Positions 24,236 through 50,759 of a DNA stretch of 64,000 bases are shown here, piece by piece (positions within the stretch are counted from its first letter, which is position 1; every line of letters begins with the position of its first letter). Origin of the DNA: Candidatus Omnitrophota bacterium (GTDB taxonomy: Bacteria; Omnitrophota; Gorgyraeia; Tantalellales; Tantalellaceae); the NCBI GenBank assembly GCA_043823005.1, contig JBDRBG010000116.1:3989-67988 (forward strand), given 5' to 3'. The notes beneath the pieces are model-generated. The model was given only the letters and a program-made list of their open reading frames with translations. It was not told where the DNA came from and ran no database searches. A program made the translations under genes and the position numbers.

Positions 24236-24305
24236 CCAATGCTCTTATTCATCGCATTTCCAGGATCATTTTTCGTTATTCACAAAAAATGTCAATCTCT
24301 TTTTT
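24236..24305. repeat. Left copy of a ~70-bp inverted-repeat pair bracketing the pilus locus
   Basis: CCAATGCTCTTATTCATCGCATTTCCAGGATCATTTTTCGTTATTCACAAAAAATGTCAATCTCTTTTT. Its reverse complement recurs at 40921-40989 with 2 mismatches. Confidence 0.8.
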
Positions 24306-24567
24306 TCTTCAGCCTTCAACCTTGAACCTTGAACGGCTCCGAAGGAGCCTTAACGCGACCGCGGCAATCTCCCTCAAAAAATGTACAAACCTGTTGTATT
24401 CGATATCCCTTTCTTATAATATATTACTATTTCTCTTCCAATTTTGACTTTTAATTTTTCCTCATGTATTATTAATAATACATTAAGGTTATAACTGTCC
24501 CATACAGTTAATGTTTTATTTAATTTTGGGACAGAAAATTATATTTATAATATATAGGAGGTGTTTT

Positions 24568-25983
24568 GTGGGGTTCCTTCAATCTTTGTCAGTAGAGCAG
24601 AAAGGGCTTCGATATAAATTAATGATAGCATTTTCTTTGATGTCAATCATTCCTTTGCTGATTCTGACCTATTTTGTGACAAATTACATTTTTGAAGCCG
24701 AAGAAAACACATTTCAGCTGGCAGCCGTTGTAATGTTTACTTTATGGATAGCCTTTACAGGATATTTGTTGGCAAAAAACATTATAATGCCTGTTATTGG
24801 TCTTTCGATTGCAGCAAAAAAAATAGCTACAGGAAGTTATGATTCGAAGATTCTGATGGAGAGAGAAGATGAGCTGGGAGAGATAGCTTCAGCAGTCAAT
24901 TCCATGACCGGAAGAATGAGCGGTTATCTCGGAAAATTGCGTGAGTACAGTAAAGAAACAGCATCACTTAACGTGAGAATACACAGAAAAGTGCTTACGC
25001 TTACTAATTTAATGGGATTGGGAGATCTTATTAGCGAAGAAGCGGAGTTTGAGGAGATAGCTGATTATGCGGCGGAAAAAATAGCAGGTGAATTATACGG
25101 CGGGTTTTGCGCTATTTTCACCAAAGAAGGAGAAAACAAAACAAAATATGTTTTAAAATCTTTTACTAATAATTCAGGGAAAGAGTCGATTGTAAAATCT
25201 TTAAAAGAAGAACTTCCTTTGGCAGAAGATCTTTTCAAAAAAAATGAATATCTACTGGTTGACGCACATCCGTTGCGGAAGAGATGGCAAAAAGAACTGC
25301 GGGAAAAACTGGGTCATATAAATGCGGTAATTTTTTCTATGAAACTTAACGCGACTGTAGTAGGAGTCATACTTTTCGGAAATTTCGGGAGAGAATTTAG
25401 TTTTAGCGCCGAGGATATAGAAGTACTAAGAGCCTTTGAAAAAGAGTTAATCCTGGGATATCAGAGCGCGCAAGTCCGGAAAAGGGTAAAAAAGCTGGAA
25501 GTTGTGGATAATCTTACCGGATTGTATACATTTTCCTATTTGCAGGATCGTTTGGATGATGAGATCAAGAGATCCGTTTATTATCAGCGGCCGTGTTCGC
25601 TTATATTGATAGATGTAGATGATTTTGAGAAATATACGGGTTCTTACGGTTCGAAAAAAGCCGAGCAGGTCTTAATAATGGTTGCGAAGCTTTTAAGCGG
25701 TGAAATGCTTCCTGTCGGAAAAGTGGCTCGTTCCGGACGCGATGAGTTTGGAATTCTTTTGCCGGAGATGAACAAAAGAGAGGCTCTTTCCACGGGAGAG
25801 GATATTCGAAAAAAGATCGAAAAAATGGAGCTATCAATGGCTCTGGAAGACAGAATTACGGTGAGTATAGGTATAGGAGAAAATCCTATAGACGGAGCAA
25901 ATGCTAAAGATATTATAGCAAAGGCGCGGCTTAATATAAAGAAAGCAAAGACGCAGGGAAAAAACACAATTGTCGGAGAGTAA
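24568..25983 (+). CDS. Membrane HAMP-GGDEF-domain protein with degenerate motif (GRDEF)
   Basis: Two TM helices, a HAMP-like segment and a C-terminal GGDEF-fold domain in which the motif reads RSGRDEF. The GTG at ~24568 lies 6 nt after AGGAGG; the ORF-track ATG at 24511 has no SD. Confidence 0.7.
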   Translation: MGFLQSLSVEQKGLRYKLMIAFSLMSIIPLLILTYFVTNYIFEAEENTFQLAAVVMFTLWIAFTGYLLAKNIIMPVIGLSIAAKKIATGSYDSKILMEREDELGEIASAVNSMTGRMSGYLGKLREYSKETASLNVRIHRKVLTLTNLMGLGDLISEEAEFEEIADYAAEKIAGELYGGFCAIFTKEGENKTKYVLKSFTNNSGKESIVKSLKEELPLAEDLFKKNEYLLVDAHPLRKRWQKELREKLGHINAVIFSMKLNATVVGVILFGNFGREFSFSAEDIEVLRAFEKELILGYQSAQVRKRVKKLEVVDNLTGLYTFSYLQDRLDDEIKRSVYYQRPCSLILIDVDDFEKYTGSYGSKKAEQVLIMVAKLLSGEMLPVGKVARSGRDEFGILLPEMNKREALSTGEDIRKKIEKMELSMALEDRITVSIGIGENPIDGANAKDIIAKARLNIKKAKTQGKNTIVGE

Positions 25984-26068
25984 GACATGTGTAACGCGTA
26001 AGAAAAATTATTTTTGAACTAAAGTTATGAAAAATGCATTTTTTACGTCATTTAAGCTGTGTCATAAC

Positions 26069-26215
26069 GTCTTTGCGAGCCCATGAAATGGGCGAAGCAA
26101 TCTCAAATAGCAATAAAAATATAAATTTTATGGGTAAACTACATTATTATTGAGATTGCCGCGGTCGCTTTAGCGCCCTCGCAAAGACAGAATTTGAATT
26201 GCGACACAGGCTGAA
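26069..26215. repeat. R1 palindromic element (~125 bp plus conserved tail)
   Basis: CGTCTTTGCGAGCCCATGAAATGGGCGAAGCAATCTCAAATAGCAATAAAAATATAAATTTTATGGG...TTGAGATTGCCGCGGTCGC...CTCGCAAAGAC. Near-identical copy at 43970-44091. Confidence 0.8.
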
Positions 26216-26273
26216 TGACAAATAAGTTATTTTGAAAAAGTCTAATTTTTTAACAAAAAAGGAGAAAAGAAAA

Positions 26274-27338
26274 GTGAGAGAGGATATAAGAAAAATTTTA
26301 GCCGCTATGCCGGAAAGAAAAGCTTCAGATCTTCATATTGGAGTGAATCGTCCCATGCATTATCGTATAGACGAAGATCTTGTGGGTATAGACAGTAACG
26401 TATTATCGGCAAAAGAAGTAAAAGAGATAGTTTACAGTCTTCTTTCTCCTGAACAAATAAAAAGGTTTGAAGAAAACAAAGAGCTTGATTTCTCTTTGGA
26501 GATAGAGAATGTAGGCAGGTACAGGTGTAACGCTTTTTTTCAGCGTCAGCATATAGGATGTGCCGTAAGATTAATACCTATTCACATATGGAGTATTGCT
26601 GATTGCGGATTGCCCGAAGATATTGTCCTTCAGTTTTGCAAAACCTTAAAAGGGTTGATCCTGGTTACCGGCGCTACGGGCAGCGGAAAATCCACTACAC
26701 TTGCCGCTATGCTGGACGAGATAAACCGTACTCGTAAATGCCATATAGTAACAGTTGAAGATCCAATCGAGTTTCTTCATAAAAATAAAAACGCTATTAT
26801 TGAGCAAAGACAGATTCTGGAAGATACTCATTCGTTTTCAAGCGCTTTACGTCATGTTCTGCGTCAGGATCCTGATGTTATTCTTATAGGAGAACTCAGG
26901 GATCTTGATACGATTCAGCAGGCGATGATAATCGCGGATACCGGCCATCTTGTTTTAGCGACTCTGCATACTTCTGACAGCACGCAGACAATAAACAGAA
27001 TAGTTGACGTGTTTCCGGCTCATCAGCAGAGGCAGATAAGGGTTCAGTTATCATTTGTTCTTACGGGTATTTTGGCACAGCAATTGATCCCTCGTAAAAA
27101 TGATAAAGGAAGAGTTCTGGCTTCAGAAATTCTGATAGCTAATTCAGCTATTAGAAGCATGATAAGGGATGCAAAGGAACCGCAGATATATTCTACGATT
27201 CAGACATCTCAAAAGATAGGCATGAAAACCATGAATCAGGCGCTTGTTGAACTGTATTCTTCAGGAGTCATAACTTATGAGGACGCGGTTTTCCGATCTT
27301 CCAATCCGGATGAACTTATTAAACTTATTGAAGGTTGA
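26274..27338 (+). CDS. pilT: Type IV pilus retraction ATPase PilT
   Basis: ASDLHI N-terminus, Walker A GATGSGKSTT, Walker B DPDVILIGELRD, His box ATLHTSDS, ~355 aa. GTG start with GGAG SD (the ORF-track start at 26232 is a TTG with no SD). Confidence 0.85.
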   Translation: MREDIRKILAAMPERKASDLHIGVNRPMHYRIDEDLVGIDSNVLSAKEVKEIVYSLLSPEQIKRFEENKELDFSLEIENVGRYRCNAFFQRQHIGCAVRLIPIHIWSIADCGLPEDIVLQFCKTLKGLILVTGATGSGKSTTLAAMLDEINRTRKCHIVTVEDPIEFLHKNKNAIIEQRQILEDTHSFSSALRHVLRQDPDVILIGELRDLDTIQQAMIIADTGHLVLATLHTSDSTQTINRIVDVFPAHQQRQIRVQLSFVLTGILAQQLIPRKNDKGRVLASEILIANSAIRSMIRDAKEPQIYSTIQTSQKIGMKTMNQALVELYSSGVITYEDAVFRSSNPDELIKLIEG

Positions 27339-27376
27339 GATTTTGAAGAGCATAATTTTTTATAAGCAGGTGTAAA

Positions 27377-27820
27377 GTGACAGAGGGACGTAAAGGGAAA
27401 AAACTTGGTGAAATTCTGATAAAATGTGATGTTATTTCAGCCGATCAACTGGAAAAAGCTCTTAATTTTCAACGCCGGGAAGGCGGCCTTTTGGGAGAGA
27501 TTCTGGTTAAGCTGGGATATTTGCATGAACAGGATATTATTAAAGCCTTAACAGCGCAATACGGTTTTCCGTATATTCCGCTGGAAAGTTATAATCTTAA
27601 AAAAGAAACGGCAAAACTGATTCCGGAAAATGTGGCGAGACAATATTGTATTGTGCCTCTGGATAGTATAGGCGATATTTTGACCATTGCGATGTCAAAT
27701 CCTCTTAACGATAAAGCTATTGAAGATGTAGAGATGATAACAAAAAAGAAAGTTAAAGTTTTTATAAGCACACTTACGTCTATGCATAATGCGCTGGATA
27801 GAATATATGCAAGAGAGTAG
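27377..27820 (+). CDS. Standalone T2SSE_N/MshEN-like domain protein (candidate c-di-GMP receptor)
   Basis: 147 aa with two tandem 24-aa motifs, KLGEILIKCDVISADQLEKALNFQ and LLGEILVKLGYLHEQDIIKALTAQ, separated by 5 residues. This matches the MshEN consensus RLGxxL(V/I)xxG(I/F)(L/V)xxxxLxxxLxxQ. Confidence 0.65.
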   Translation: MTEGRKGKKLGEILIKCDVISADQLEKALNFQRREGGLLGEILVKLGYLHEQDIIKALTAQYGFPYIPLESYNLKKETAKLIPENVARQYCIVPLDSIGDILTIAMSNPLNDKAIEDVEMITKKKVKVFISTLTSMHNALDRIYARE

Positions 27821-27847
27821 AAATATTAAGCGGGTTCAATCTGTACT

Positions 27848-29578
27848 ATGGCTATATCACTTTCAAAAAAAATATGTGACATTCTTATTAAGAAAAAAAT
27901 CGTCACAGAAGAAGCTTTGAATAAAGCAAGGGCGCAGTGCGCCGAGAAAGGCGGCAGTCTAAGCGATATTCTTGTTAAGATGAACGCGGTTCCTAAAGAG
28001 GAACTATTGACAGCTATAAGTGACGAGGCCGGGTTTCCTCCTGTTAATCTTTCCAATTTCAACATTGAAGATGATGTTATCGCTCTTATTCCTAAAAAGT
28101 TCGCGGTTTCTTATAAAATAATTCCGGTATCACGCATGGGCACCCAGCTTACCGTGGCAATGGTCGATCCTCTTAATATATTCGCGATTGATGATCTTAA
28201 GCTTTTGACTCATCTGGAAATAAGTCCGGTCATTGCCTCTGAAGATGACATGGAAGAATCTTTGCGTAAGTATTATGAAAGATCCGCGCATGAAGAAATA
28301 AGTTCAATAGTCGAAGACATTGAAAGCGCTGAAATGGAAATGGTTCCCGAAGGCGAAGACATGTCCTCAACAGAACTTTTCAGGATAACACAGGAAACCC
28401 CGGTTGTGAAACTTGCCAATATGATACTGGGAAAAGCAGTCAAGGTCGGAGCGAGCGATATTTTAATAGAGCCAATGGAGGATGCCTCAAGAGTAAGGTA
28501 TAGGATAGACGGTACTTTGCGGGAGTTTTATTCTCCGCAGAAAAAATATCATCAGGCTATAATATCAAGAATTAAGGTCATGTCGAGTTTAGATATTGCT
28601 GAGCGGCGGTTACCTCAGGACGGACGGTTTTCTGTAAAGGTCGAAGACCGAAAAGTAGATTTTCGGATTTCTATTGTTCCGTCCAGTTTAGGCGAAAAAG
28701 CGGCTTTAAGGGTGCTTGACCAGCAACAGGCTACAATAGATATTGAGCGGCTGGGTTTTAATAAAAGAGACGTTAAAATAATAAAGGAGGCCGGAAGCTG
28801 TCCGCATGGCATGATTCTTATCTGCGGCCCTACCGGATGCGGAAAAACAACTACGCTTTATTCTCTTTTAAAAGATATCGATGATCCGACAAAAAATATT
28901 GTGACTGTTGAAGATCCGGTAGAATATGAACTTAAAGGGATAAACCAGGTAAGTATAAACGCGGAAATCGGGCTTACGTTTGCCGGTTGTTTAAGGTCCA
29001 TTTTGCGTCAGGATCCGGATGTTATAATGGTCGGAGAGATAAGGGATTTTGAGACGCTTGATGTCGCGATAAAATCAGCGTTAACCGGGCATGTTGTTTT
29101 AAGCACGCTTCACACAAACACTGCCGGCGGAGCGATTGTCCGGATGGTGAATATGGGAATAGAACCTTTTTTAATATCAGCTTCTGTCGAGCTAATTGCG
29201 GCTCAAAGATTATTACGGCTTTTGTGTCCGGAATGTAAAGAACCTTATAAGCCTTCGCGTCAGACAGCGGAAAAATACGGTCTCTTGAAAAATGAAGAAA
29301 TAATAAACATTTATAAACCTGTCGGATGTGATAGATGTATGAATAGCGGATATAAGGGCAGGGTAGGAATAATCGAGAGTCTGCGTCTTACTCCGGCGAT
29401 TAAGGATTTAATATTCAGAGGCGCAAGAGAATTTGAAATAGAACAAAAAGCCAGAGAAGAAGGTATGACCATGTTAAGGGAAAACGGGATAGAACATGTT
29501 ATCGCGGGAGAAGCATCACTGGAAGATGTGCTTTGTAGTACGGTTGAAAGTAAAAAAACAGGATCAGCAGAAAAATGA
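27848..29578 (+). CDS. pilB: Type IV pilus assembly ATPase PilB/GspE, paralog 1
   Basis: N-terminal T2SSE_N, Walker A GPTGCGKTTT, Asp box, Walker B DPDVIMVGEIRD, His box LSTLHTN, tetra-Cys Zn motif CPEC...CDRC. Confidence 0.85.
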   Translation: MAISLSKKICDILIKKKIVTEEALNKARAQCAEKGGSLSDILVKMNAVPKEELLTAISDEAGFPPVNLSNFNIEDDVIALIPKKFAVSYKIIPVSRMGTQLTVAMVDPLNIFAIDDLKLLTHLEISPVIASEDDMEESLRKYYERSAHEEISSIVEDIESAEMEMVPEGEDMSSTELFRITQETPVVKLANMILGKAVKVGASDILIEPMEDASRVRYRIDGTLREFYSPQKKYHQAIISRIKVMSSLDIAERRLPQDGRFSVKVEDRKVDFRISIVPSSLGEKAALRVLDQQQATIDIERLGFNKRDVKIIKEAGSCPHGMILICGPTGCGKTTTLYSLLKDIDDPTKNIVTVEDPVEYELKGINQVSINAEIGLTFAGCLRSILRQDPDVIMVGEIRDFETLDVAIKSALTGHVVLSTLHTNTAGGAIVRMVNMGIEPFLISASVELIAAQRLLRLLCPECKEPYKPSRQTAEKYGLLKNEEIINIYKPVGCDRCMNSGYKGRVGIIESLRLTPAIKDLIFRGAREFEIEQKAREEGMTMLRENGIEHVIAGEASLEDVLCSTVESKKTGSAEK

Positions 29579-31284
29579 GAACCTTTTCCAAACAGAAAAT
29601 AGTAGAAGCTCTTATACAAAGCGGGTTTATATCAGAAAAAGAATTAGAGCCTATCTTAGCGGAAGCAATAAAGCAGAGAGAAGTTAGTCTGATAAAACTG
29701 CTTTCAGACAGTAATATTATGTCTGAAATAGATTTATTGACAGTTTTAAGTAAAGAAATGGATATTCCTCCGATCGATATTTTAAATGTAAGATTAAATC
29801 CTAAACTGATGGAAATCGTATCGGAAAGACTTATCAGGCGGCATTGTATTCTTCCGTTGTCAAAAATAGGAGACGAAATAACAATAGTTGCTGCTGATCC
29901 CAGCGATATATTTGCCATTGATGATGTAAGAACGGTTACAGGTTGTGATGTTGAGATTGTGCTGGCGGCAAGAAACGCTATTAATGACGCGATCAATGTG
30001 TTTTATTCTAAAGACGAAGAAGAACTTTCGACTATTATGGAAGAAGCCCGTGAATCAGGGGACGATGTAGAGGTAATGGGAGAAAAAGAGGGGATCGATA
30101 TAACAGGGATAGCGGAAGAGAGTAAAGCGGCTCCGATAGTTAAGATGGTTGATCTTATAATCGGTGAGGCTATAGAAAAAAAGGCAAGTGACATACATAT
30201 CGAACCGCAGGAAAAATCATTAAGGATAAGGTATCGTATAGACGGACAGCTTTATAACGCGTTTGATCTTCCTAAAAAAAATCAAAATGCTATACTCGCA
30301 AGGCTTAAGATTATGTCAAATCTTGATATTACAGAGACAAGGGTTCCGCAGGACGGCCGGTTTCGGATACGGCTGGGAGAAAAAGAAATAGATTTTAGGG
30401 TATCTTCACTGCCTCTTAATTATGGGAACAAGATGGTTTTACGAGCTCTGGATAAAGCTAATCTTTCTGTGGGGTTGGAAACCCTGGGTTTTTTGCCGGA
30501 ACCGCTTGCTGATTTCAAAGAGGCGCTTTCAAGGCCTTTTGGAATAATCCTGGTTACAGGCCCTACCGGAAGCGGAAAATCTACTACACTATATTCAATT
30601 CTTAATTCGATGAATGTTCCCGGAAGAAATATAGTGACTGTGGAGGATCCTGTTGAATATCAGGTCCAGGGTATAACGCAGATCGCGGCGCGTCCTGAAA
30701 TAGGTCTTGATTTTGCCAGCGGATTAAGAGCGATTTTAAGACAGAGCCCTGATACTATACTTGTAGGCGAGATAAGGGATTTTGAGACCGCTGATATAGC
30801 GATAAAAGCGTCGCTTACCGGTCAGATGGTACTTAGTACTCTTCATACGAATAACGCTGTGGGCGCGATAACAAGGCTCGTAAATATGGGTATAGAACCT
30901 TTTCTTGTAGCTTCCAGCCTTGTTATGGCATGCGCGCAAAGACTGTTAAGAAAGATATGTTCTAATTGTAAGGCGGAAGAAGACATCCCTGCAGATGTGT
31001 TGAAAAAAATAAGAAGCAAATATTCGGAAGCAGTCGGGGTTAATAAATTTTATCACGGAACGGGTTGTGAGCAGTGCCATAATACCGGGTATAAAGGAAG
31101 ATTAGGGACCCTGGAGACTCTTCTGATAGATGACGAGATAAAAGAAATGATAATAGCCCGCAAATCAGAAGAAGATATAAACGTTTATCTGAAAAAACAG
31201 GGAGCAATGACTCTTCGGGATAATGCTATGCGGAAATTTATAAGAGGATGGACAAGCCTGGAGGAAGTGTATCGGGTAACTTAA
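29575..31284 (+). CDS. Type IV pilus/T2SS assembly ATPase PilB/GspE, paralog 2
   Basis: Same architecture (GPTGSGKSTT, SPDTILVGEIRD, LSTLHTN, CSNC...CEQC). Its start codon overlaps the paralog-1 stop (ATGA). Confidence 0.85.
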   Translation: MRTFSKQKIVEALIQSGFISEKELEPILAEAIKQREVSLIKLLSDSNIMSEIDLLTVLSKEMDIPPIDILNVRLNPKLMEIVSERLIRRHCILPLSKIGDEITIVAADPSDIFAIDDVRTVTGCDVEIVLAARNAINDAINVFYSKDEEELSTIMEEARESGDDVEVMGEKEGIDITGIAEESKAAPIVKMVDLIIGEAIEKKASDIHIEPQEKSLRIRYRIDGQLYNAFDLPKKNQNAILARLKIMSNLDITETRVPQDGRFRIRLGEKEIDFRVSSLPLNYGNKMVLRALDKANLSVGLETLGFLPEPLADFKEALSRPFGIILVTGPTGSGKSTTLYSILNSMNVPGRNIVTVEDPVEYQVQGITQIAARPEIGLDFASGLRAILRQSPDTILVGEIRDFETADIAIKASLTGQMVLSTLHTNNAVGAITRLVNMGIEPFLVASSLVMACAQRLLRKICSNCKAEEDIPADVLKKIRSKYSEAVGVNKFYHGTGCEQCHNTGYKGRLGTLETLLIDDEIKEMIIARKSEEDINVYLKKQGAMTLRDNAMRKFIRGWTSLEEVYRVT

Positions 31285-31462
31285 TTAGTTGATAGTTGAT
31301 GGTTAGTTGGTTGATGGTTGTAAAATGGCGCGTAGGAGGGGTCTCCCGACCCCGAACAGGAATGTAATCGGTTTGTCGTCAGGAGACCCGCCAGAGGCGG
31401 GCAGGCTCCTATAGGGAATATTTAGACTGCTTGTACTAGGACATGTAAAAGAAGGGAAATAT

Positions 31463-32683
31463 ATGGGAAAATTTGTTTATACAGCAAAAGACAGTACAGG
31501 ACATACTCTTAAAGGCGAGCTTTTAGCGGCTGACAAGAAAAAAGCGCTTGATATTTTAAGAGAAAAAGGGCTTTTGGTCCTTAACCTTGAAGCGTTTAAG
31601 GAAAAATCAGCCATGTTTTCTTTTCTTAGCCTCACCTCAAAAAAAAAGATCGCAATGGAGGAACTTGTTATCTTTAGCCGGCAGATGGCGACAATGACAG
31701 GCGCGGGCATTACTATTGTGGATTCGCTTGATACACTGGCTGATCAAGTGGATAACCCTTCTTTACAGAAGATTCTTAAAGATATCAGAGATTCCGTAAA
31801 TACAGGAGCAAGCCTTTCTGAAGCCATGAGTAAATATACGGTAGTTTTTTCCGCGTATTTTGTTAATATGATCAAGGCCGGAGAATCCAGCGGTATGCTT
31901 GATGAAGTGCTTGAAAGAATATCTTCCTATATGGAAAAGACAAACGCTTTACAGAAAAAGATTAAAACAGCTATGGTCTATCCTTCGATTGTTTCATTAA
32001 TGGCTGTAGGAATAACGCTTGTTATGATTTTAAAAGTTATTCCTGTTTTTAAGGATATGTTCTCCGGGTTTGGCGCAGCGCTGCCTGCTCCGACTATGTT
32101 TTTAATAAATCTAAGTGACGCGATGAGGCATTATTTTGTTTTTTTTGTCGTCGGATTTGTTATATTCGGAGTGATTGTTAAGCGATATACCCGGACTGAA
32201 AAGGGCCAAACAGTTATTGATGGCTTGAAACTAAAGATGCCTGTTTTTGGGGAATTATTTAAAAGGGTCGCGATAAGTAAATTTACAAGGACATTAAGTA
32301 CCTTAATGAAAAGCGGTGTTCCCATTCTTACTGCTCTTGAAATAGTCGCGAAAACAGCGGGCAATCGGGTTGTCGAGAAGTCCATTAATACAGTAAGAGA
32401 CAGTGTGCGTGAAGGGGAAAGCATTTCAAGTCCTATGGCAAAAAGCGGTATTTTTCCGCCTCTTGTTACCCGTATGGTAGCAGTAGGTGAAAAAAGCGGC
32501 GAACTTGAAACCATGCTTATAAAAATAGCTGATTTTTATGATGAACAGGTTGATGCCATTGTAGACGGGCTTACAAGTCTTATTGAACCTCTTATTATAG
32601 CTTTTTTAGGTATTGTGATAGGAGGTATAGTTATTTCTATGTTTTTGCCGATATTTCAGATATCGAGTCTAGTCAATATGTAA
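31463..32683 (+). CDS. pilC: Type IV pilus platform protein PilC (GspF family)
   Basis: 406 aa with two GspF-type repeats and three TM helices. Confidence 0.85.
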   Translation: MGKFVYTAKDSTGHTLKGELLAADKKKALDILREKGLLVLNLEAFKEKSAMFSFLSLTSKKKIAMEELVIFSRQMATMTGAGITIVDSLDTLADQVDNPSLQKILKDIRDSVNTGASLSEAMSKYTVVFSAYFVNMIKAGESSGMLDEVLERISSYMEKTNALQKKIKTAMVYPSIVSLMAVGITLVMILKVIPVFKDMFSGFGAALPAPTMFLINLSDAMRHYFVFFVVGFVIFGVIVKRYTRTEKGQTVIDGLKLKMPVFGELFKRVAISKFTRTLSTLMKSGVPILTALEIVAKTAGNRVVEKSINTVRDSVREGESISSPMAKSGIFPPLVTRMVAVGEKSGELETMLIKIADFYDEQVDAIVDGLTSLIEPLIIAFLGIVIGGIVISMFLPIFQISSLVNM

Positions 32684-32773
32684 AAAAGGTTCTATGGGAT
32701 TATATGGACGTGGATATGTAAAAAGCCAGAAATGCCTGTTTTTTTAACTTTAAAAAAGAGACGTTTTAAATAT

Positions 32774-32802
32774 TTGCTCTTAAGGAAAATGATGGGTATA
32801 CT
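32774..32802 (+). promoter_or_regulatory. Sigma70-like promoter upstream of the pilin gene
   Basis: TTGCTC, 17-nt spacer, TATACT. About 60 nt upstream of the pilin start. Confidence 0.4.
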
Positions 32803-32862
32803 TAAAGTGGAAGGGTATAAGAAGATCTTTCCAAAAATATTACAAAAAAGGAGGTGAGAACA

Positions 32863-33225
32863 ATGAAGATACAAAAATTATTGGGTAAAAAGGGTTTCAC
32901 GCTTGTTGAAATAATGATAGTTGTGGCAATTATAGGTCTATTGGCTGCTATAGCCATTCCAAATTTCGTGAAGGCCCAGGCAACAGCCCAGGAAAAAGCA
33001 TGTATAGCGAATCTAAAGCAAATAGACGGAGCTAAAACTTTATATGCGCTGGATAACAACGTGGCTTCAGGAGGTGCCTGTGCAATGTCGAATCTGGTCA
33101 CAGACTATATAAAGTCAACTCCGCAATGTCCTGCCGGAGGCGCTGATACTGACTATACTCCGGGTGTGATTGGAACAACAGATCCGGTATGTACAATTAA
33201 CGGAACGGATCATGTATTGCCATAA
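32863..33225 (+). CDS. pilA: Type IV pilin (PilA-like)
   Basis: Leader MKIQKLLGKKG then FTLVEIMIVVAIIGLLAAIAIPNF (class III signal, Glu at +5). ~110-aa mature protein with Cys pairs. A sigma70-like promoter lies upstream and a strong terminator downstream. Confidence 0.85.
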   Translation: MKIQKLLGKKGFTLVEIMIVVAIIGLLAAIAIPNFVKAQATAQEKACIANLKQIDGAKTLYALDNNVASGGACAMSNLVTDYIKSTPQCPAGGADTDYTPGVIGTTDPVCTINGTDHVLP

Positions 33226-33251
33226 TAAGTAGCGGGCATTTCAACAAGAAT

Positions 33252-33296
33252 GACAAAAAGAGGCAAATATGTTTAATAATTGCCTCTTTTTTGTCA
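33252..33296 (+). terminator. Rho-independent terminator after the pilin gene
   Basis: GACAAAAAGAGGCAA, loop, TTGCCTCTTTTTTGTC. About 15-bp stem followed by a T-run. Confidence 0.65.
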
Positions 33297-33349
33297 TTAG
33301 GAATAAGAAGTAAAATGACATTTTACTGTGCCGTTCAGGCTGTGTTGCA

Positions 33350-33555
33350 ACGTCTTTGTGAGGGTAGCGAAGCGACCGCGGCAATCTCTCCCGCGTCTTT
33401 GCGGAGGAGTGAAACGACTGAAGCATCTCTATAATATGGTTCCCCCATAACATTTATATTATTACTGCTATCAAGATTGCTTCGCTATGCTCGCAAAGAC
33501 GAAGAGAAATTGAGATTATCCAGTCTGTTGCGGACAAAGTGAAGCAATCCGGCTT
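33350..33555. repeat. R1 units (direct plus inverted) between the two pilin genes
   Basis: CGTCTTTGTGAGGGTAGCGAAGCGACCGCGGCAATCTC, GCGTCTTTGCGGAGG...AAGCATCTC, then AAGATTGCTTCGC...CTCGCAAAGACG and further arm fragments. Confidence 0.7.
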
Positions 33556-33738
33556 CTCTTAAAGACCTAGTAGCGGCTTTTTTATAGCTGAACTATTACG
33601 ATAACAAAGAGATAAATATTTTTCATAAGAATCTTTTTTGTATTTATTTTGATTTAATTGGATTTTTTTGAAATAATATGGCATATATTGTTTAGTAAAT
33701 AATATTATTGGCTCTAAAATTCAACAAGGAGAATTTCA

Positions 33739-34074
33739 ATGAAGGGTAGGGGATTTACTCTGGTTGAGATCATGATCGTTACTGCTATTATTGGGATAGT
33801 AGCGGCAGTGGTTGTTTTTAACACGACAAAAGCGGCTGAAATAGCGCAATCCAAGACATGTATAGCAAATCTCAGACAGCTTTACGGTGCAAAGATGATG
33901 TGGGCAGCGGATAACGGCAAGATTTCGGGGGATGTCTGTATTATGTCAGACATAGTTTCTGATTATTTAAAATCTACGCCTTCTTGTCCTTCCGGAGGCA
34001 ATTATACTATCGGCAATGTGGGGACAACGCCTGCTTGCAGTTTAGAATCAGGAGATGATCATAAAGTCTTTTGA
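33739..34074 (+). CDS. Type IV pilin paralog
   Basis: MKGRG then FTLVEIMIVTAIIGIVAAVVVF. Shares the CIANL(K/R)Q...DN motif with the first pilin. Confidence 0.8.
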   Translation: MKGRGFTLVEIMIVTAIIGIVAAVVVFNTTKAAEIAQSKTCIANLRQLYGAKMMWAADNGKISGDVCIMSDIVSDYLKSTPSCPSGGNYTIGNVGTTPACSLESGDDHKVF

Positions 34075-34173
34075 TGCTGTCGGCTTTTTATATCCAATTA
34101 AAGAAAATGATATTAGATTTTTATGTTTCATTTGCATTCGGAGTTAACCGGGGAATGAAAGATCGGTTTGATT

Positions 34174-36039
34174 ATGTATAGACAAAAAACTGTTTTTTTG
34201 ATCATATTACTTTTGTTCGCGGCATCATTTGTATGTTATTCAAATATGCTTCATGCGGACTTTGTCTGGGATGATGAATTTTTAGTTGTGAGAAATTCGT
34301 TGATACGCGTTCCTTTGTGGTCATTTCAATTTTTTAAACAGGATATTTTAAATACAGGATTTACTCATTCTCTTTATTACCGCCCTGTACAGATCTTAAG
34401 TTACGCGATAGATTACCGTTTATGGGGACTTAACCCTTTTGGTTTTCATCTCTCAAATATAATACTTCATTTTATTAACGGAGTATTATTATTTTTTTTG
34501 GTTTTCAAACTTACGCGGAGTGAGTTTACAGCGTTTTTTTCTTCTCTTTTTTTTATAATCCATCCGATACAAACAGGCGCGGTTTCTTATGTTTCAGGCA
34601 GGGGTGAACTTCTGTTTTTTCTGTTTGGTTTTCTGTATATGCGGTTATATCTTTGTTTTAAAGATAAAAAGAATTATTTCCTTTTTGTTTTAAGTTTGTT
34701 TTTTCTCACGCTTTCTTTTCTTTGCAAAGAAGCCGCTATTATTTTTCCTGTACTACTTTTTTTGATCGGCAGACTTTTTTTAAAAGAAAAAAAATTAAGA
34801 GCTATGAAGTTTCAGGCGCCCGGATTTATTCTTGCGGGATTATATGTGATCGCTCGTTATTTTTTTGGACACGGACAATTGCGATTTTTAAAGGGTATTG
34901 ACATTAAAGAGGTTTTGTTTAAATATTTTATAATGGTTAAAGAACTTTGGGGCCTTATTCTTTATCCCGGAGATCTTCACATGAGAAGGGAGCTTATCTT
35001 TAACAATATTTATACGATAATTTTTTTCTGTTTTTTTCTTTTTAGCGGGATTGTTTTTTATAGACAAAAAAAAGAAAGAAACATATTGTTGTTTTCATTC
35101 ATTTTTTATCTTACAGGTCTTGTTCCATTCGTGTTTTCATTCGGAAGTTTTAATGTTTTTGCCGAACACTGGGCTTATTTGCCCGGATGCGGAATATTTT
35201 TATTTATAGCCTTTGAGATCTCAAAGATGCTTGAGAAGAATAGACGTTTCTATAAAATTTTTGCCGCTACGGGTATATTTTTTATAGTTTTTTTATCAGC
35301 ATTAAGCACAAGGGAATATAATGAATTCTGGAAAGACGACAGTTCTCTCAGTAATAGGATTTTAAGTTTTTCTGATCAGGACGATTCCGCGATGTATTAT
35401 AGGATATTGTCTGCGCGGGATAGCGGCAAAAAGGACGAGGTTTTCGAAAGGATGCGGGAATACGCGGAGAGTTATCCCGATGATCCGGCAGTCTGGTATA
35501 TAAAAGGAAGAAATACTCTTGCAATGGGAGATGTCGATGCCGCGGAAAAAGATTTTGAAAAAGTTTTTAATATAGCGCCGGGATATGTTGAAGGCTATAT
35601 GGGGCTTGCTTTGATCGAGTTTGCGCGAGGCCGTAACAGTGAAGGTATCTGTTATCTTGAAAAGCTGGTAAGCGTAAATTCAAAAAACAGTGAAGCGTTG
35701 CTTCGGTTAGGAACAGCTTATTATTCGGAAGGAAAAACAGAAGAAGCGTTTAAAGCTATGCGTAAAGCCGGTGAAATTAACGCGTATGATTATAATTATC
35801 TGGTAAACATGGGGTCTCTGCGCGCTAGAGAAGGAGAGCTTCAAGAAGCAATAAAATTGTTTTTACGGGCTATAAAGATATATCCGAATGTTCCCCTGGT
35901 TCATTATAATATGGGGGAAGTTTTTCGTTCTGTCGGAGAAAAAAAAGAAGCGAAAAAATGGTTTCAAAAAACAATAATGATAGACGCGAATTTTTCTCCG
36001 GCAATACAGGCGCTTCAGGAAATGGCAAACAGTGAATAG
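34174..36039 (+). CDS. TMTC-like GT-C-fold membrane protein with C-terminal TPR repeats (candidate protein O-glycosyltransferase)
   Basis: About 11 TM helices, an N-terminal loop motif ADFVWDDEF (resembles the DFVxDD loop of TMTC/PMT-family GT-C enzymes) and at least 5 C-terminal TPR repeats. Confidence 0.55.
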   Translation: MYRQKTVFLIILLLFAASFVCYSNMLHADFVWDDEFLVVRNSLIRVPLWSFQFFKQDILNTGFTHSLYYRPVQILSYAIDYRLWGLNPFGFHLSNIILHFINGVLLFFLVFKLTRSEFTAFFSSLFFIIHPIQTGAVSYVSGRGELLFFLFGFLYMRLYLCFKDKKNYFLFVLSLFFLTLSFLCKEAAIIFPVLLFLIGRLFLKEKKLRAMKFQAPGFILAGLYVIARYFFGHGQLRFLKGIDIKEVLFKYFIMVKELWGLILYPGDLHMRRELIFNNIYTIIFFCFFLFSGIVFYRQKKERNILLFSFIFYLTGLVPFVFSFGSFNVFAEHWAYLPGCGIFLFIAFEISKMLEKNRRFYKIFAATGIFFIVFLSALSTREYNEFWKDDSSLSNRILSFSDQDDSAMYYRILSARDSGKKDEVFERMREYAESYPDDPAVWYIKGRNTLAMGDVDAAEKDFEKVFNIAPGYVEGYMGLALIEFARGRNSEGICYLEKLVSVNSKNSEALLRLGTAYYSEGKTEEAFKAMRKAGEINAYDYNYLVNMGSLRAREGELQEAIKLFLRAIKIYPNVPLVHYNMGEVFRSVGEKKEAKKWFQKTIMIDANFSPAIQALQEMANSE

Positions 36040-36135
36040 GGTTGACAGTTGACGGTTAGTTGGTTGATGTTTAAGGGGAAAGGTTCTTGACGGGTAAACA
36101 GTCAACGAACCAACGGTCAACCGTCAACAAACCGG
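36040..36135. repeat. R2 palindromic element abutting the TMTC-like gene stop codon
   Basis: TAGGGTTGACAGTTGACGGTTAGTTGGTTGATGTTTAAGGGGAAAGGTTCTTGACGGGTAAACAGTCAACGAACCAACGGTCAACCGTCAACAAAC. Confidence 0.8.
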
Positions 36136-36340
36136 TGAATAGGGAATAGTGTCTTGTCCTAAAAATAGAGGAAGGGAGATTGCCGGCTTGTAGCCCGCAA
36201 TGACAGAAGGGGGTCGTCATTGCGAAGGCCGAGCCAGCCGAGGCCTGTGGCAATCTGTTATGTAAAAGTGTTTAATTTTTAATAACGATACAAGGTGCAA
36301 AGATGCTTGATTTTTTTTAACATCTAATCCAGTCTTAACC

Positions 36341-36369
36341 TTGACAACGTTAAATGGATATGATAATCT
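36341..36369 (+). promoter_or_regulatory. Sigma70-like promoter upstream of pilM
   Basis: TTGACA, 17-nt spacer, TAATCT. The 13-mer TGACAACGTTAAA recurs at ~43893 upstream of the first pilV-like cassette. Confidence 0.4.
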
Positions 36370-36440
36370 CTCATTAAGATTAATATATATATAACTATAT
36401 TATTAATTTAAACTTATAAATATTTAGCTCGGCATTAATT

Positions 36441-37460
36441 ATGATAAAATTGGGCAATATAAAACAATCTTCAGTAGGGCTTGATATCGGCACTAATTCA
36501 GTCAAAATTGCTTGTTTGCGGAAAAATGCTGATAAAAATACGCTTCTTGGGTATAACATAAAAAATCTGCCGTTTGATATTAAACCTGATCATGTAATAG
36601 ATGTTGTGAGGGAGGCTTTTGAGGAAATCGAGCTTAGTCCCGATGAGATAAATCTGTCCATATCAGGGCCGGAAGTTATTGTGAGATTTGTTGATCTTCC
36701 TAAAATGACCAAAGAACAGCTTGAAAGCGCGCTTGTGTTTGAAGCTGAAAAATATATTCCTTTTAATATTAACGACGTTATGCTTGATTTTATCATTCTC
36801 GGGGATTCAAGTGAACCCGGACAAATGAAAGTGCTTTTGGCGGCCGCGAAAAAGGAAGCTATAAATTCACGTTTATCAATGGCGGAAAATCTGGGGATGG
36901 CAGTAAATCTTCTTGATATTAACTCTTTCGCGATGTTTAACGCGTTTCTCGCGTCTAATCAGGAGGATTTAGATGGAAAAGGTATAGCGTTTTTTGACCT
37001 GGGATATTCAGATACAAATGTTATTATATCAACGGGTAAAGTCCCGAGTTTTATGAGGTTAATACAAATAGGGACTAAGGATATAATTTCCGCGATGAGC
37101 CGTAATTTGTCTATTCCGATTGATCAGGTTGATGCTTTGATGATGGGGAAAGATGAAGCTTCAAATAATTCAATAAGGGAAGGGGCTGGTTCTATTTTAG
37201 ATGATCTGGTAAATGAGATGCAGCTTTCTTTTGGATATTTTGAGAATAGAAGTAATATCGCGGTTAAAGAGGTTTTTTGTTCCGGAGGAATGGTACATCA
37301 ACAGGTTGCGCTGGATTATTTGAGTCAGAAATTAGAGGTAACACTTAAAAAGTGGAACCCGTTGGAAGGACTTATATTGTCGGAAAGTCTTTCCGGCGAA
37401 GATCTGGAAAAAGCTGCTTCACAACTTGCTGTAGCTGTGGGGTTAGCTCTAAGGGATTGA
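36441..37460 (+). CDS. pilM: Type IV pilus assembly protein PilM (actin-like)
   Basis: GLDIGTNSVKIA N-terminus and PilM architecture. Followed by pilN/O/P/Q. Confidence 0.85.
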   Translation: MIKLGNIKQSSVGLDIGTNSVKIACLRKNADKNTLLGYNIKNLPFDIKPDHVIDVVREAFEEIELSPDEINLSISGPEVIVRFVDLPKMTKEQLESALVFEAEKYIPFNINDVMLDFIILGDSSEPGQMKVLLAAAKKEAINSRLSMAENLGMAVNLLDINSFAMFNAFLASNQEDLDGKGIAFFDLGYSDTNVIISTGKVPSFMRLIQIGTKDIISAMSRNLSIPIDQVDALMMGKDEASNNSIREGAGSILDDLVNEMQLSFGYFENRSNIAVKEVFCSGGMVHQQVALDYLSQKLEVTLKKWNPLEGLILSESLSGEDLEKAASQLAVAVGLALRD

Positions 37461-37486
37461 TATTTTTTATAATTTTATAATATTCA

Positions 37487-38119
37487 ATGATAGAACTTAA
37501 TCTGCTTCCAAAAGAGTTTCGCAAAAAAAAACAGGCTTCCAATCAGTTGACTGAGATACCTGTAGTTGTCATATCCGCGTGTATAGTAGTTTTTGTTGTG
37601 TTGATTCATATTCTATTGGTTTTTTTTGACGCAAGGAACAATGCTGTCTTGAAAAAACTGGAGCAAAGATGGGATCAAATACAGCCTCAAAGTAAAGAAA
37701 CAGAAGAACTATCCAGAAATATTGTCTCTATTGAAAAAAAAGTTATTGCTATTCGGGAAATAGCAAAACCCGGTTTTAGTTGGGCGCGGGTATTAAGCGG
37801 GTTGAATGAGAGTATAATTGACGATATATGGCTTTCAGGATTTGATCTTAGTTTTTCAAGAGGAAAAGGATCAGCTCAGGACCTGCCAAGCGCAGTTAAT
37901 CTTACAGGGTACGCGTTTAGTGAAACGGAAAAAGCTACTTCCCGTGTCGCGAAATTTATTGCCAGTTTGAAAAACAATGAAGATTTTTCGCGATATTTTG
38001 AAGATATTGAAGTGCAGAACATAAGGAATACTGAATTTGCTAAGACCGAGGTTATGATATTCAGGTTGATTTGCCGGGTTAAATCAATAGATATTGTTTC
38101 GATTAAAGGTGAAAAATAA
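37487..38119 (+). CDS. pilN: Type IV pilus assembly protein PilN
   Basis: MIELNLLPKEF (INLLP motif), single TM, coiled coil. Confidence 0.75.
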   Translation: MIELNLLPKEFRKKKQASNQLTEIPVVVISACIVVFVVLIHILLVFFDARNNAVLKKLEQRWDQIQPQSKETEELSRNIVSIEKKVIAIREIAKPGFSWARVLSGLNESIIDDIWLSGFDLSFSRGKGSAQDLPSAVNLTGYAFSETEKATSRVAKFIASLKNNEDFSRYFEDIEVQNIRNTEFAKTEVMIFRLICRVKSIDIVSIKGEK

Positions 38120-38128
38120 AAAGTAAAA

Positions 38129-38719
38129 ATGATAGATATTAAAAATATAACTGTTGAACAGATTAAAGAGTTTTTAAAAGACGAGCAATACCGGAAATAT
38201 ATCATTTCCGGCGGAGTTGTACTTTTTTCCGTGGCTTATTTGGTCTTGCTGGTTGTTCCAAGGTTTTTAAATCTCGGAGACCTGGCTTCTCAAATAAAGG
38301 ATACACGCAATAAGGTTGAAATGCTTGAAACCAGAATAAACCGCAGCGATAAGATGAAGATAAAATTAGCTGAACTTGAGAAAGAACTTACAGATTCTTC
38401 CGAAGGATTATCCGAAGACACCGAGATTCCCGTATTTTTGGAGGAATTATCTTCTGTTGCCGAAATTGCCGGGGTAACAATTTTAAGTATTACGCCTCAG
38501 GAATCCAGAGCTGTTGATAAAAATAACGATATTTTTTACAGTGAAAGCTCGATAATTATAACGGCCAAAAGCGGATATCATCAGCTTCGGCATTTTGTAA
38601 GTAACATAGAAATAGCAAAAAGGTTTATTTCTATCGGAGATCTAAAGATACAATACAATGATAGAACTCCCAGAAAGCATGACATAAAAATGGTATTAAA
38701 AACTTATGTTTCAGAATAA
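38129..38719 (+). CDS. pilO: Type IV pilus assembly protein PilO
   Basis: Single TM plus coiled coil plus C-terminal ferredoxin-like region. Position between pilN and pilP. Confidence 0.65.
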   Translation: MIDIKNITVEQIKEFLKDEQYRKYIISGGVVLFSVAYLVLLVVPRFLNLGDLASQIKDTRNKVEMLETRINRSDKMKIKLAELEKELTDSSEGLSEDTEIPVFLEELSSVAEIAGVTILSITPQESRAVDKNNDIFYSESSIIITAKSGYHQLRHFVSNIEIAKRFISIGDLKIQYNDRTPRKHDIKMVLKTYVSE

Positions 38720-39101
38720 GGCAAATAAAAAGAAAAGAGACTGTTGTTTGTTTCCGCAGACAGCTGTAATATTAATTTTGTTGTTATTGTCAGCAAAGTT
38801 AGTCTGCGCGGAGGGAGATCAGCCTGTAGAGAAGAGAGATCCTTTTGTTCCGCTTGTTGGTGTAGCTCCGGAAAAAAGTCATGAAGAAACAGTAAGTGGT
38901 GAGGGAATTTTTATTTTGCCCGAAGAGATGAAGCTGCAGGGAATTGTGACCGGCGTTAACGGAGAATTCAACGCTTTTATCAACGGAGAGATAGTTAAAA
39001 AAGGCGATAAATTGGGAAATATTCTGATTGAGGATATTGCTAAAAATACAGTTGTTGTGAATGTTAATGATAAAAGGTATATTTTAAAATTGTATGAATG
39101 A
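38706..39101 (+). CDS. pilP: Type IV pilus assembly protein PilP
   Basis: Signal peptide then an RDPFVP motif characteristic of PilP. Immediately upstream of the secretin. Confidence 0.65.
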   Translation: MFQNKANKKKRDCCLFPQTAVILILLLLSAKLVCAEGDQPVEKRDPFVPLVGVAPEKSHEETVSGEGIFILPEEMKLQGIVTGVNGEFNAFINGEIVKKGDKLGNILIEDIAKNTVVVNVNDKRYILKLYE

Positions 39102-39120
39102 AAACAAGGAGATTATAAGA

Positions 39121-40863
39121 ATGAGAAATACTAGTAAAATACGGAAGCTGTTTATACTCGTTCTAATTATGGCATTTTTAAATTTATCTCTCAGCGTGTC
39201 AGCGTTTTGTCAGGTTGGAGGAGCTGTTTCTTCGCCTGAGATAAGCTCTTCAATAGTTACAGACCCTGTGGACGAGACTGTCGAGGAGATTATTCCTTCA
39301 AAATCCGGCAATGTCACTATAAATTTCAAAGATGTTGATATTCAGACAGTACTTCATTATTTGTCGGAAGTCAGCGGGGTAGATATTGTTCCTACTTATG
39401 ATGTAGTAGGTAATGTAACTGTTCGGTTGAGGGATAAACCCTGGGAAGTGGCTTTAGATGTTATTACAAGAAACTCGGATTATGCTTATACAAGAGAAGA
39501 TACTATTATCAGGGTAATGCCAAAGGCTAAGCTTAATACAGAAGAGCCTGTAACAGCGGTTATTCCTTTAAATTATATTATCCAGGATACAGAGGAGTCC
39601 AACCAGAACGTGGCAAAACTTCTGGAAGCAATTACTTCGGTGCTAAAAGTTGATGCAGGCGAAAGCGTGACTTATCTGCCGAGCGCTAACTCGATAGTCG
39701 TAGCCGCGGTACCGGCAAGGCTTAACGCGATAAAGGACATGGTGAAAAGGATAGATGTTAAAATACCTCAGGTCATGCTTGAGGCTAAAATAATAGAGGT
39801 GCGGTTAGATAAGAACGATCAGTTTGGGATTGACTGGAACGCGGTAGTAAGTATCTCCGGATCAAAGCGTCCGACAACACTGCCTTTTGAGCGGACGGGC
39901 GCGTTCGGGTTTTTACCCGGAGAACAGAGAAAGTATCTTCCGTATAGCACAAATATCGCCGGAACTACTATTTCGGAAGAATCGGATTTTCCTTATGTTG
40001 ATTTTACCGCGGCAGTTGATCCGACGGCCGTAGCTACCACAGGCTCGGTTTTTAGTTACGGAACCCTGGATTTTAGCGCTTTTTCAGCGGTACTCAGATT
40101 TATTGATGAATGGGATGATACTAATATTTTGTCAAGCCCGCGAATAACAACATTAAACAATCAGCCCGCGGTTATCAAGGTGATAACGAATGTTTTTCTT
40201 CAAAAACAGCAGACAGCAACTGATACAGCTTCTGTTGTTACCGTTGAATTTGAAGATGAACCCAGAGAAGTAGGAGTTATTTTAGAAGTAACGCCTCATG
40301 TTAATGATAACGGCGAGATAACCGTTAATCTAAAACCGCAGGTTTCCACCAATCTTACTTTTTCGGAACTGGAAGTAAGCGGCGCTACGAATACAGTGGC
40401 AATGACATACAATTCAAGAGAAGCCGAGACGCAGGTAATGGTAAGAGACGGTGAAACCGTTTTTATCGGAGGGCTTATAACGGAGACAAACACAAAAGAA
40501 GATCATAAGTTTCCTATTCTCGGAGATATGACCAAAGGTTTGCCGTTTTTGGGCCCTTTGTTTAATTATGAGCAGGATAATGTCGATAAGACTGAAGTGG
40601 TGTTTTTTATTACGGTTCATCTTTTGAAAGATGGACCGCATTCAGTCGATGTTTCAAATACAGAAGACGAATACGCGAAGTATTTTGAAGAGGAAATAAA
40701 CGAAGCTGAAATTGAAGCAGATAAAGCTGCAGTAAGATCCGAAGAACGAAATAAAACTAAAACAAAAGTTATTGTAAGTAAAGACCAGGCAAAAGAAGGG
40801 TATAAAGCTTTTCTTGATTTCAGGAAAAAACAGGGAGTTAAAAAGACGAAAGATAGAAGATGA
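39121..40863 (+). CDS. pilQ: Type IV pilus secretin PilQ
   Basis: Signal peptide, STN/N0-like domain (VTINFKDVDIQTVLHYLSEV), C-terminal secretin motif FPILGDMTKGLPFLGPLF. ATG 39121 has AAGGAG 8 nt upstream. Confidence 0.85.
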   Translation: MRNTSKIRKLFILVLIMAFLNLSLSVSAFCQVGGAVSSPEISSSIVTDPVDETVEEIIPSKSGNVTINFKDVDIQTVLHYLSEVSGVDIVPTYDVVGNVTVRLRDKPWEVALDVITRNSDYAYTREDTIIRVMPKAKLNTEEPVTAVIPLNYIIQDTEESNQNVAKLLEAITSVLKVDAGESVTYLPSANSIVVAAVPARLNAIKDMVKRIDVKIPQVMLEAKIIEVRLDKNDQFGIDWNAVVSISGSKRPTTLPFERTGAFGFLPGEQRKYLPYSTNIAGTTISEESDFPYVDFTAAVDPTAVATTGSVFSYGTLDFSAFSAVLRFIDEWDDTNILSSPRITTLNNQPAVIKVITNVFLQKQQTATDTASVVTVEFEDEPREVGVILEVTPHVNDNGEITVNLKPQVSTNLTFSELEVSGATNTVAMTYNSREAETQVMVRDGETVFIGGLITETNTKEDHKFPILGDMTKGLPFLGPLFNYEQDNVDKTEVVFFITVHLLKDGPHSVDVSNTEDEYAKYFEEEINEAEIEADKAAVRSEERNKTKTKVIVSKDQAKEGYKAFLDFRKKQGVKKTKDRR

Positions 40864-40920
40864 ATTGATGAGAAGAAAAAAATAAACCACAGAGATACGG
40901 AGAGAAAAAAGGAAAAGAGT

Positions 40921-40989
40921 AAAAAGAGATTGACATTTTTTGTGAATAACGAAAAATGATCCTGGAAATGCGACGAATAGGAGCATTGG
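40921..40989. repeat. Right copy (inverted) of the ~70-bp repeat pair bracketing the pilus locus
   Basis: AAAAAGAGATTGACATTTTTTGTGAATAACGAAAAATGATCCTGGAAATGCGACGAATAGGAGCATTGG is the reverse complement of the 24236-24305 element. Confidence 0.8.
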
Positions 40990-41137
40990 GATGGTCATGC
41001 TTCTCGCATGGCTCGAAGCTCGCAAAGACAAACTTTCGTCATTGCGAGGAGCGTAAGCGGCGCGGCAATCTCGAAAAAAATGTATATAGACCTGTTGTAC
41101 ACGATGTACGACATTTTATACACGATATACGATAAAT

Positions 41138-41700: not shown

Positions 41701-41732
41701 TAGGACGATACAAGCGGCAGAGTTGTTAGTAG

Positions 41733-43853: not shown

Positions 43854-43969
43854 GCTTCGCAATGTCTTTGCGCGTACACGCAACTGACTAGTACCCTGAC
43901 AACGTTAAAATGAAGAATAATTTTGTCAGTTATCTTACTCTGTCATTCTCGCGAACAGACTGTATTATA

Positions 43970-50758: not shown

Positions 50759-50759
50759 A

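Follow-up and report, generated by a model that had tools for sequence, protein, structure and literature searches.

The stretch of DNA analyzed here comprises 64,000 nucleotides of contig JBDRBG010000116.1 from a Candidatus Omnitrophota bacterium (hereafter the window) and contains a type IVa pilus (T4aP) gene cluster that is bracketed by a pair of inverted repeats and lies within a conserved block of backbone genes. Gene calls were checked by Pfam and NCBIfam profile scans of the 53 main open reading frames (ORFs), and all main genes of the window are encoded on the + strand. Fourteen genes lie between the repeat arms and make up the T4aP cluster, which bears out the initial annotation that everything in this interval is pilus-related. 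The cluster begins with a HAMP-GGDEF gene (24511-25983), followed by pilT (26232-27338), a gene for a standalone MshEN protein of 147 aa (27377-27820), two pilB paralogues (27848-31284), pilC (31463-32683), two type IV pilins with the N_methyl motif (32854-33225 and 33739-34074), a membrane protein with C-terminal TPR repeats (34168-36039), and pilM, pilN, pilO, a pilP-like gene, and the pilQ secretin gene (36441-40863). The families matched constitute a type IVa set (three T2SSE, T2SSF, PilM_2, PilO, Secretin/STN, and N_methyl), with PilN a weak Pfam match (E 0.0025) and PilP assigned by position only. To the left of the cluster are rodA (20696-21790) and a gene for a B12-binding radical S-adenosylmethionine protein of family TIGR03960 (rSAM; 21852-23612, 651.4 bits versus a cut-off of 462.3). 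To the right are a 99-aa TIGR03936/DUF2344 protein (41138-41437, 105.3 bits versus a cut-off of 71.9) and a ribonuclease of the Rne/Rng family (rng; 41821-43365). The rSAM and DUF2344 genes are therefore both above their NCBIfam cut-offs and, as first described, 17.5 kb apart with the pilus locus between them.

The arms of the inverted repeat, at 24222-24304 and 40921-41003, are 83 nt in length, 90% complementary, and separated by 16,616 nt, and form the longest inverted pair found within the window by repeat search. By BLAST, 24236-24304 matched 40989-40921 at 97.1% identity over 69 nt with two mismatches (E 9e-28), confirming the reported repeat of about 70 bp that recurs as its reverse complement. 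Within this 69-nt core (24236-24304 in the left arm, 40921-40989 in the right arm), an inner core of 48 nt is identical between 24252-24299 on the - strand and 40926-40973 on the + strand, and exactly two copies of it are present in the window at up to three mismatches (0 expected from shuffles). Allowing one indel, homology of the arms extends outward from the core into GTCTTTGCGAG...CGCAATGACG-type sequence, a generic repeat that belongs to the commonest dispersed family of the window. The inverted unit thus combines a core of about 69 nt with a copy of this family, of which the window contains at least ten. No terminal inverted repeat (TIR) or target-site duplication (TSD) was evident where arm homology ends. 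Both arms are intergenic, located within spacers of 898 bp (left) and 274 bp (right), and both are non-coding. Arms as coding sequence were ruled out, since the ORFs that overlap the left and right arms use different frames and have no peptide in common.

In order to place the locus in an evolutionary context, gene order was compared with Omnitrophota loci (L002-L011) located via rSAM (48-62% identical) and RNase G (48-71% identical) homologues. All four loci that cover the left junction (L002, L003, L010, and L011, with rSAM identities of 62%, 62%, 57%, and 48%) have the order mreB-mreC-mreD-pbp2-rodA-rSAM-HAMP/GGDEF-pilT-MshEN-pilB-pilB-pilC-pilin, with rSAM-GGDEF spacers of 129, 458, 113, and 60 bp, respectively. 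The right junction reads pilM-N-O-P-Q-short DUF2344-rng in L004 (same genome as L003, RNase G named Ca. Makaraimicrobium thalassicum), L007 (Ca. Tantalella remota), L008, and L009, with pilQ and DUF2344 spaced by 30, 7, 171, and -22 bp (the last an overlap). In L005 and L006, rng comes next after pilQ, and no DUF2344 gene was called between them. Junction spacers of several relatives were judged too short for an 83-nt arm (129, 113, and 60 bp on the left; 30, 7, and -22 bp on the right). Furthermore, no additional copy of the core was detected by sensitive blastn with both arm regions, either in the window or in L001-L009, and the second of two 24-mers taken from the core had no match in the loci retrieved.

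The initial annotation had proposed an island that is delimited, mobilised, or inverted by the inverted-repeat pair, and had called for a synteny comparison with related genomes. In that comparison, the cluster occupied the same junctions wherever the Omnitrophota loci L002-L011 covered them, rSAM and DUF2344 being contiguous in none, and because relatives have the same rSAM-pilus-DUF2344 order without the repeat, the island reading fails. The suggestion that the locus was inserted into a conserved backbone fared better. The only match in a scan of genome contigs with the rSAM protein was a 37%-identical Actinomycetota locus (L001), which was used as an outgroup, and there rodA, TIGR03960, TIGR03936 (254 aa), and Rne/Rng are contiguous. 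This is the only empty site found, i.e. rSAM next to DUF2344 without a pilus cluster, and it lies in another phylum. The TIGR03960 and TIGR03936 genes, adjacent in the outgroup, are 17.5 kb apart in the window, and the relatives show the same separation. Insertion into the backbone therefore stands, but the placement is old and vertically inherited. The pilus cluster does interrupt a block that is elsewhere contiguous, through an event older than the divergence of the sampled Omnitrophota.

The right-hand partner of the block is shortened throughout these lineages. Omnitrophota TIGR03936/DUF2344 proteins are 77-145 aa long, cover profile positions 1-95 of 209, and are 45-58% identical in this short form (window 41138-41437; L004 9674-9994; L007 9516-9953; L008 9632-9865; L009 9688-9999). 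Truncation of DUF2344 by a 225-nt repeat adjacent to it in the window was considered and ruled out, as the form of about 100 aa is conserved across Omnitrophota.

One relative carries a divided cluster. Loci L008 and L010 are on a single contig (ena:ERZ27257507:k141_110358, 746,488 bp), where the two halves of the pilus cluster are about 550 kb apart. The break falls between the pilin and TPR genes; the left half keeps rSAM and the right half keeps DUF2344-rng. Retention of both outer junctions indicates that rSAM/GGDEF and pilQ/DUF2344 are not island edges. The interior of the cluster has proved less stable than these junctions, whereas the reverse would be expected of island edges. On this contig, the left half is succeeded by dsbD/thioredoxin genes, and plsX-fabH-fabD stand ahead of the right one.

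Recent acquisition of the pilus genes on a mobile island or composite transposon that ends in the inverted repeats would account for both the bracketing of the cluster and the separation of two genes that are adjacent in the outgroup. The same insertion point is however occupied across Omnitrophota whose rSAM is 48-62% identical to that of the window, the arms are absent from the relatives' loci, and the split-cluster genome retains both junctions. Hallmarks of mobility were likewise not found. Pfam scans of the 53 main ORFs yielded no integrase, transposase, or recombinase family, the families matched being housekeeping and pilus only, and no tRNA is present in the window. GC content is 0.385 inside the cluster and 0.393 in both flanks, and GC skew is +0.19 inside compared with +0.25 and +0.23 in the flanks, although skew is weak evidence that largely tracks the coding strand. 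The locus therefore lacks what characterizes a genomic island (mobility gene, patchy presence, deviant composition, tRNA site), and its bracketing repeat is inverted, whereas the flanking repeats of tRNA-inserted islands would be direct. A composite transposon would carry a transposase-coding insertion sequence at each end, whereas each arm here is 83 nt of non-coding sequence. Recent mobile acquisition is accordingly given almost no credence, and the synteny already refutes it.

The arms could also serve as substrates for RecA or an unlinked recombinase, giving reversible inversion of the 16.6-kb cluster and phase variation. Inversion would uncouple and recouple the pilus cluster and flanking transcription, a lineage-specific on/off switch that is considered highly improbable; if true, it would control a structure to which a role in host attachment is ascribed in Omnitrophota. 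The sole support for inversion comes from the arms themselves, whose 69-83 nt at 90-97% identity would permit homologous recombination from time to time. Known programmed invertons usually span far less than 16.6 kb, with their own invertase close by. No recombinase gene was detected in the window to stand in for a nearby site-specific invertase, the present orientation is ancestral and the same in every relative examined, and GC skew inside the segment has the same sign as in the flanks and a similar size. Furthermore, the ten other inverted pairs of the window would predict equally arbitrary inversions. Phase variation by inversion of this segment is thus very doubtful.

As first described, both boundaries are repeat-dense and non-coding; the left one would be about 955 bp if the HAMP-GGDEF gene starts at GTG 24568, which lies 6 nt past AGGAGG and is more likely than the listed ATG 24511. 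Self-comparison of the window by BLAST gave 38 matches, including 32 intergenic pairs, of which 11 are inverted, and intergenic repeat pairs touch 18 of the 26 spacers of at least 100 bp. If the 32 pairs were distributed randomly, with each spacer weighted by its length, the probability that at least one joins exactly these two spacers is ~0.2, or ~0.1 if it must also be inverted. The bracketing of the cluster by inverted repeats is not strong evidence of function. Syntenic loci of the relatives have a GC content of 47-51% and few such short repeats, compared with 39% GC in this window.

Both spacers are mosaics. The left spacer contains a hairpin repeat at the rSAM stop, a 32-52-nt motif, a second hairpin, two generic-family copies, the core, and a direct repeat, while the right spacer contains the core, a generic-family copy, and a direct-repeat tail common to the left spacer. 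The generic-family copies that abut the left core (24118-24235, - strand) are of the type GTCTTTGCGAG...CGCGGCAATCTC / CGCAATGACG, and the copy that abuts the right core (41004-41075, + strand) includes 41018-41049, which equals 55019-55050 at 94%. Related copies were located at 4313, 5717, 13230, 20433, 26147, 33351, 41018, 44055, 55009, and 56689. A dispersed family built on GTCTTTGCGAGG...GCGACGCGGCAATCTC has at least ten copies in both orientations (e.g. 4313-4353, 5716-5857, 13230-13275, 20431-20608, 26046-26225, 33351-33388, 43960-44115, 55009-55050, and 56651-56741), and sometimes occurs as a unit of about 145 nt (26057-26200 equals 43960-44103 at 90%).

Taken together, these results make it very probable that the 16.6-kb segment is a vertically inherited core T4aP cluster lying beside two copies of the genome's small intergenic repeats. 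Its entry into the rodA-rSAM(TIGR03960)-TIGR03936-rng block would predate the split of the Omnitrophota lineages sampled, with vertical transmission at that position since then. In this genome, numerous families of short, non-coding repeats of the REP (repetitive extragenic palindromic) or MITE (miniature inverted-repeat transposable element) kind, often with hairpins, would have expanded the spacers, two composite-repeat copies having landed, or been copied, in opposite orientations into the spacers at the cluster ends. The repeat pair did not deliver the pilus locus, and nothing points to moving or flipping. Judging from the behaviour of the other repeats in the 64 kb, the core pair presumably belongs to a genome-wide repeat family, and the arms are presumably neutral. 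An alternative offered in the initial annotation, two oppositely oriented MITE copies, comes close to this explanation and is the one that fits best.

Several observations weigh against vertical inheritance beside ordinary repeats as a full account of the arms. Only two copies of the 69-nt core occur within the 64 kb examined, and at 97% identity they are among the best-preserved repeat pairs of the window; such identity could stem from recent duplication, gene conversion, or selection. The left and right spacers also share two further segments, more than one random match would give. One of these is inverted (24118-24155 / 41037-41075) and the other is a direct repeat of 76% identity on the + strand (24360-24404 / 41061-41105), located upstream of the GGDEF gene, the first after the left boundary, and of DUF2344. 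Lastly, the core carries a 10/12 match to a sigma-70-like promoter and folds better than shuffled sequence on that strand.

The core could alternatively be a duplicated regulatory module (promoter or operator). Such a role for the core is compatible with vertical inheritance of the cluster and is judged unlikely. The right copy would supply a promoter into DUF2344/rng after repeats parted pilQ from DUF2344-rng, while the left copy would either drive antisense transcription in the direction of rSAM or be bound by the same factor. The promoter-like element TTGACA-16-AAAAAT lies at 40930-40957 on the + strand, facing DUF2344/rng, and at 24295-24268 on the - strand, which is the TTGACA-bearing strand of the left arm. 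Two hairpins are predicted in the core on the promoter-like strand only (z scores of -2.2 and -4.1 versus shuffled), and the core contains the imperfect palindrome CATTTTT-N-AAAAATG. The 274 bp between pilQ and DUF2344 here contrast with 7-30 bp or an overlap in relatives, where the short spacing makes co-transcription of the two genes probable. The 97% identity of the core pair, the two further segments common to both spacers, and the position of the direct repeat upstream of both first genes are also consistent with a regulatory module. Conversely, promoter consensus matches are about as frequent as in shuffled sequence (4-5 versus 2.5 +/- 1.7), no promoter consensus is established for Omnitrophota, the left core copy faces away from the pilus genes, and the core is not conserved in relatives. 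The direct-repeat tail was tried as a recurrent operator and dropped, no additional copies of it having been found.

Other repeats of the spacers were also characterized. A palindromic hairpin repeat directly 3' of the rSAM stop (23613-23717, + strand; -39 kcal/mol, z -4.4) has further copies downstream of the TPR gene (36034-36138, 95%) and of the second pilB (31281-31319). A hairpin of about 100 nt in the left spacer (23991-24098; -27.5 kcal/mol, z -5.5) has arms CCACAGAG...CTCTGTGG, and a CCACAGAGA motif related to these arms is present at 40888-40900, just upstream of the right arm. The window had no Rfam match at gathering thresholds, and at E<=1 the boundaries gave nothing credible, the sole match being a spurious plant microRNA on the 23991-24098 hairpin. 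A 32-nt motif, AAAAGTGTAAACTTTTTTAGGACGAnACAAGG, occurs six times (1142-1173, 23732-23763, 36264-36295, 41684-41715, 60001-60032, and 62212-62243), always on the gene strand, in the spacers upstream of murB, GGDEF, pilM, rng, mfd, and a ppiC-like gene, 8 to about 750 nt from the gene in each case, and is a candidate regulatory or promoter-associated module. The 225-nt repeat mentioned above (41484-41711, 59801-60028, and 62124-62208) lies downstream of DUF2344, argS, and mfd. Its first two copies are 94.7% identical, all copies are in direct orientation, and it contains a strong hairpin with 33-nt arms and has no Rfam family.

Within the pilus cluster, the signature of the first gene is degenerate (GRDEF); signatures in this clade are GRDEF, DQDEF, DHNEF, and GFSEF, with a canonical GGDEF in the distant L011. 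The standalone MshEN protein has two tandem motifs (KLGEIL...Q / LLGEILV...Q), which we take to be of the type that binds cyclic di-GMP and which are kept in four relatives, and the N-termini of both PilB proteins are degenerate at the matching positions. Relatives' orthologues of the TPR membrane protein also match the PMT_2 glycosyltransferase family. No prepilin peptidase (PilD) family was matched among the scanned ORFs of the window, and the gene may be located elsewhere in the genome.

Downstream of rng, a second, minor-pilin-like block (43374-51971) precedes rplU at 52199, rpmA at 52646-52885, and then obg, proB, proA, nadD, and argS; a view that rpmA was missing between rplU and obg proved wrong. 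That this block separates rng from rplU had been proposed in the initial annotation and was upheld. In L009, the most distant of the loci, rplU comes immediately after rng, and the interval from the pilins to pilM contains three unannotated genes. In the other right-junction loci (L004-L008), rng and rplU are separated by a block of unannotated genes. The second block is a tandem duplication of a three-gene module (43374-47594 and 47906-51971). The module encodes a small pilin-like protein, a protein of about 745 aa with a pilin-like N-terminus, and a PilX_N protein of about 405 aa; the large proteins of the two modules are 55% identical to each other, and the module is single in most relatives examined (L005/L006, L008). 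The window's rSAM is identical to NCBI MFH1847402.1 and its RNase G to MFH1847418.1, with next-best homologues at 63% and 71% identity, respectively, and no close relative was found in the searched collections.

Had the repeats delivered or flipped a pilus island, the locus would be a rare mobile or phase-variable surface-organelle locus in a phylum that is uncultured and may depend on hosts. What the evidence describes is ordinary biology, an inherited core pilus cluster in a genome rich in small intergenic repeats, and serves as a caution that in repeat-rich genomes inverted pairs around functional clusters readily arise by chance. Of modest value is the arrangement itself: a T4aP cluster between TIGR03960 and a shortened TIGR03936, inside mreBCD-pbp2-rodA ... 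rng-rplU-rpmA-obg, is shared by the Omnitrophota genomes sampled and could be a marker arrangement for the phylum. More speculatively, the old placement of the pilus cluster between these two genes may point to a functional link and not simply to neutral synteny.

In comparison with known systems, the segment resembles genomic islands, composite transposons, and invertible segments in being a multi-gene module surrounded by inverted repeats inside a conserved backbone. It differs from them in having no mobility gene, att or target duplication, or compositional signature, in not being patchy, and in that the repeats are absent from relatives. The arms are closer to REP elements and bacterial interspersed mosaic elements (BIME), to the enterobacterial repetitive intergenic consensus (ERIC), to Correia elements of Neisseria, and to MITE-like elements, which are similarly less than 250 nt, non-coding, intergenic, and present in both orientations, with frequent hairpins and mosaics clustered at operon ends. 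Some known families, e.g. Correia elements, carry outward-facing promoters. Unlike these families, the core has only two copies within the 64 kb, with no evident TIR, TSD, or partner transposase, and is without a sequence relative in the collections searched: neither metagenome nor viral contigs matched the core 24-mers, and plasmid and phage collections had no match to the right arm.

The TIGR03960/TIGR03936 pair next to rng is recognizable here, both proteins being above their NCBIfam cut-offs and the outgroup having the adjacent arrangement. It departs from the usual pair in that the Omnitrophota genes are parted by the pilus cluster and TIGR03936 consists of the N-terminal ~100 residues only. 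No papers on TIGR03960/TIGR03936 turned up in the library searched, and the word synteny is never used in the study of Omnitrophota by Seymour et al. 2023 (PMC10066038), which reported T4aP genes in nearly all Omnitrophota and in most genomes of every class. In common with canonical pilBTC/pilMNOPQ systems and those of Omnitrophota, the cluster encodes PilB, PilT, PilC, PilM, PilO, a PilQ secretin, and pilins with the N-methylation motif. It is distinguished from canonical T4aP loci by its organization as one co-oriented cluster with the HAMP-GGDEF gene first, a standalone MshEN protein, two PilB paralogues, and no prepilin peptidase gene found in the window. 'Symbiotic' F-type ATPase genes adjoin many Omnitrophota T4aP clusters (PMC10066038), whereas none are adjacent here. 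The place of the cluster between TIGR03960 and a shortened TIGR03936, of which no description was found in that library, is a synteny note, not a new kind of system, and the pilus cluster itself is a type IVa system of the kind already reported in Omnitrophota.

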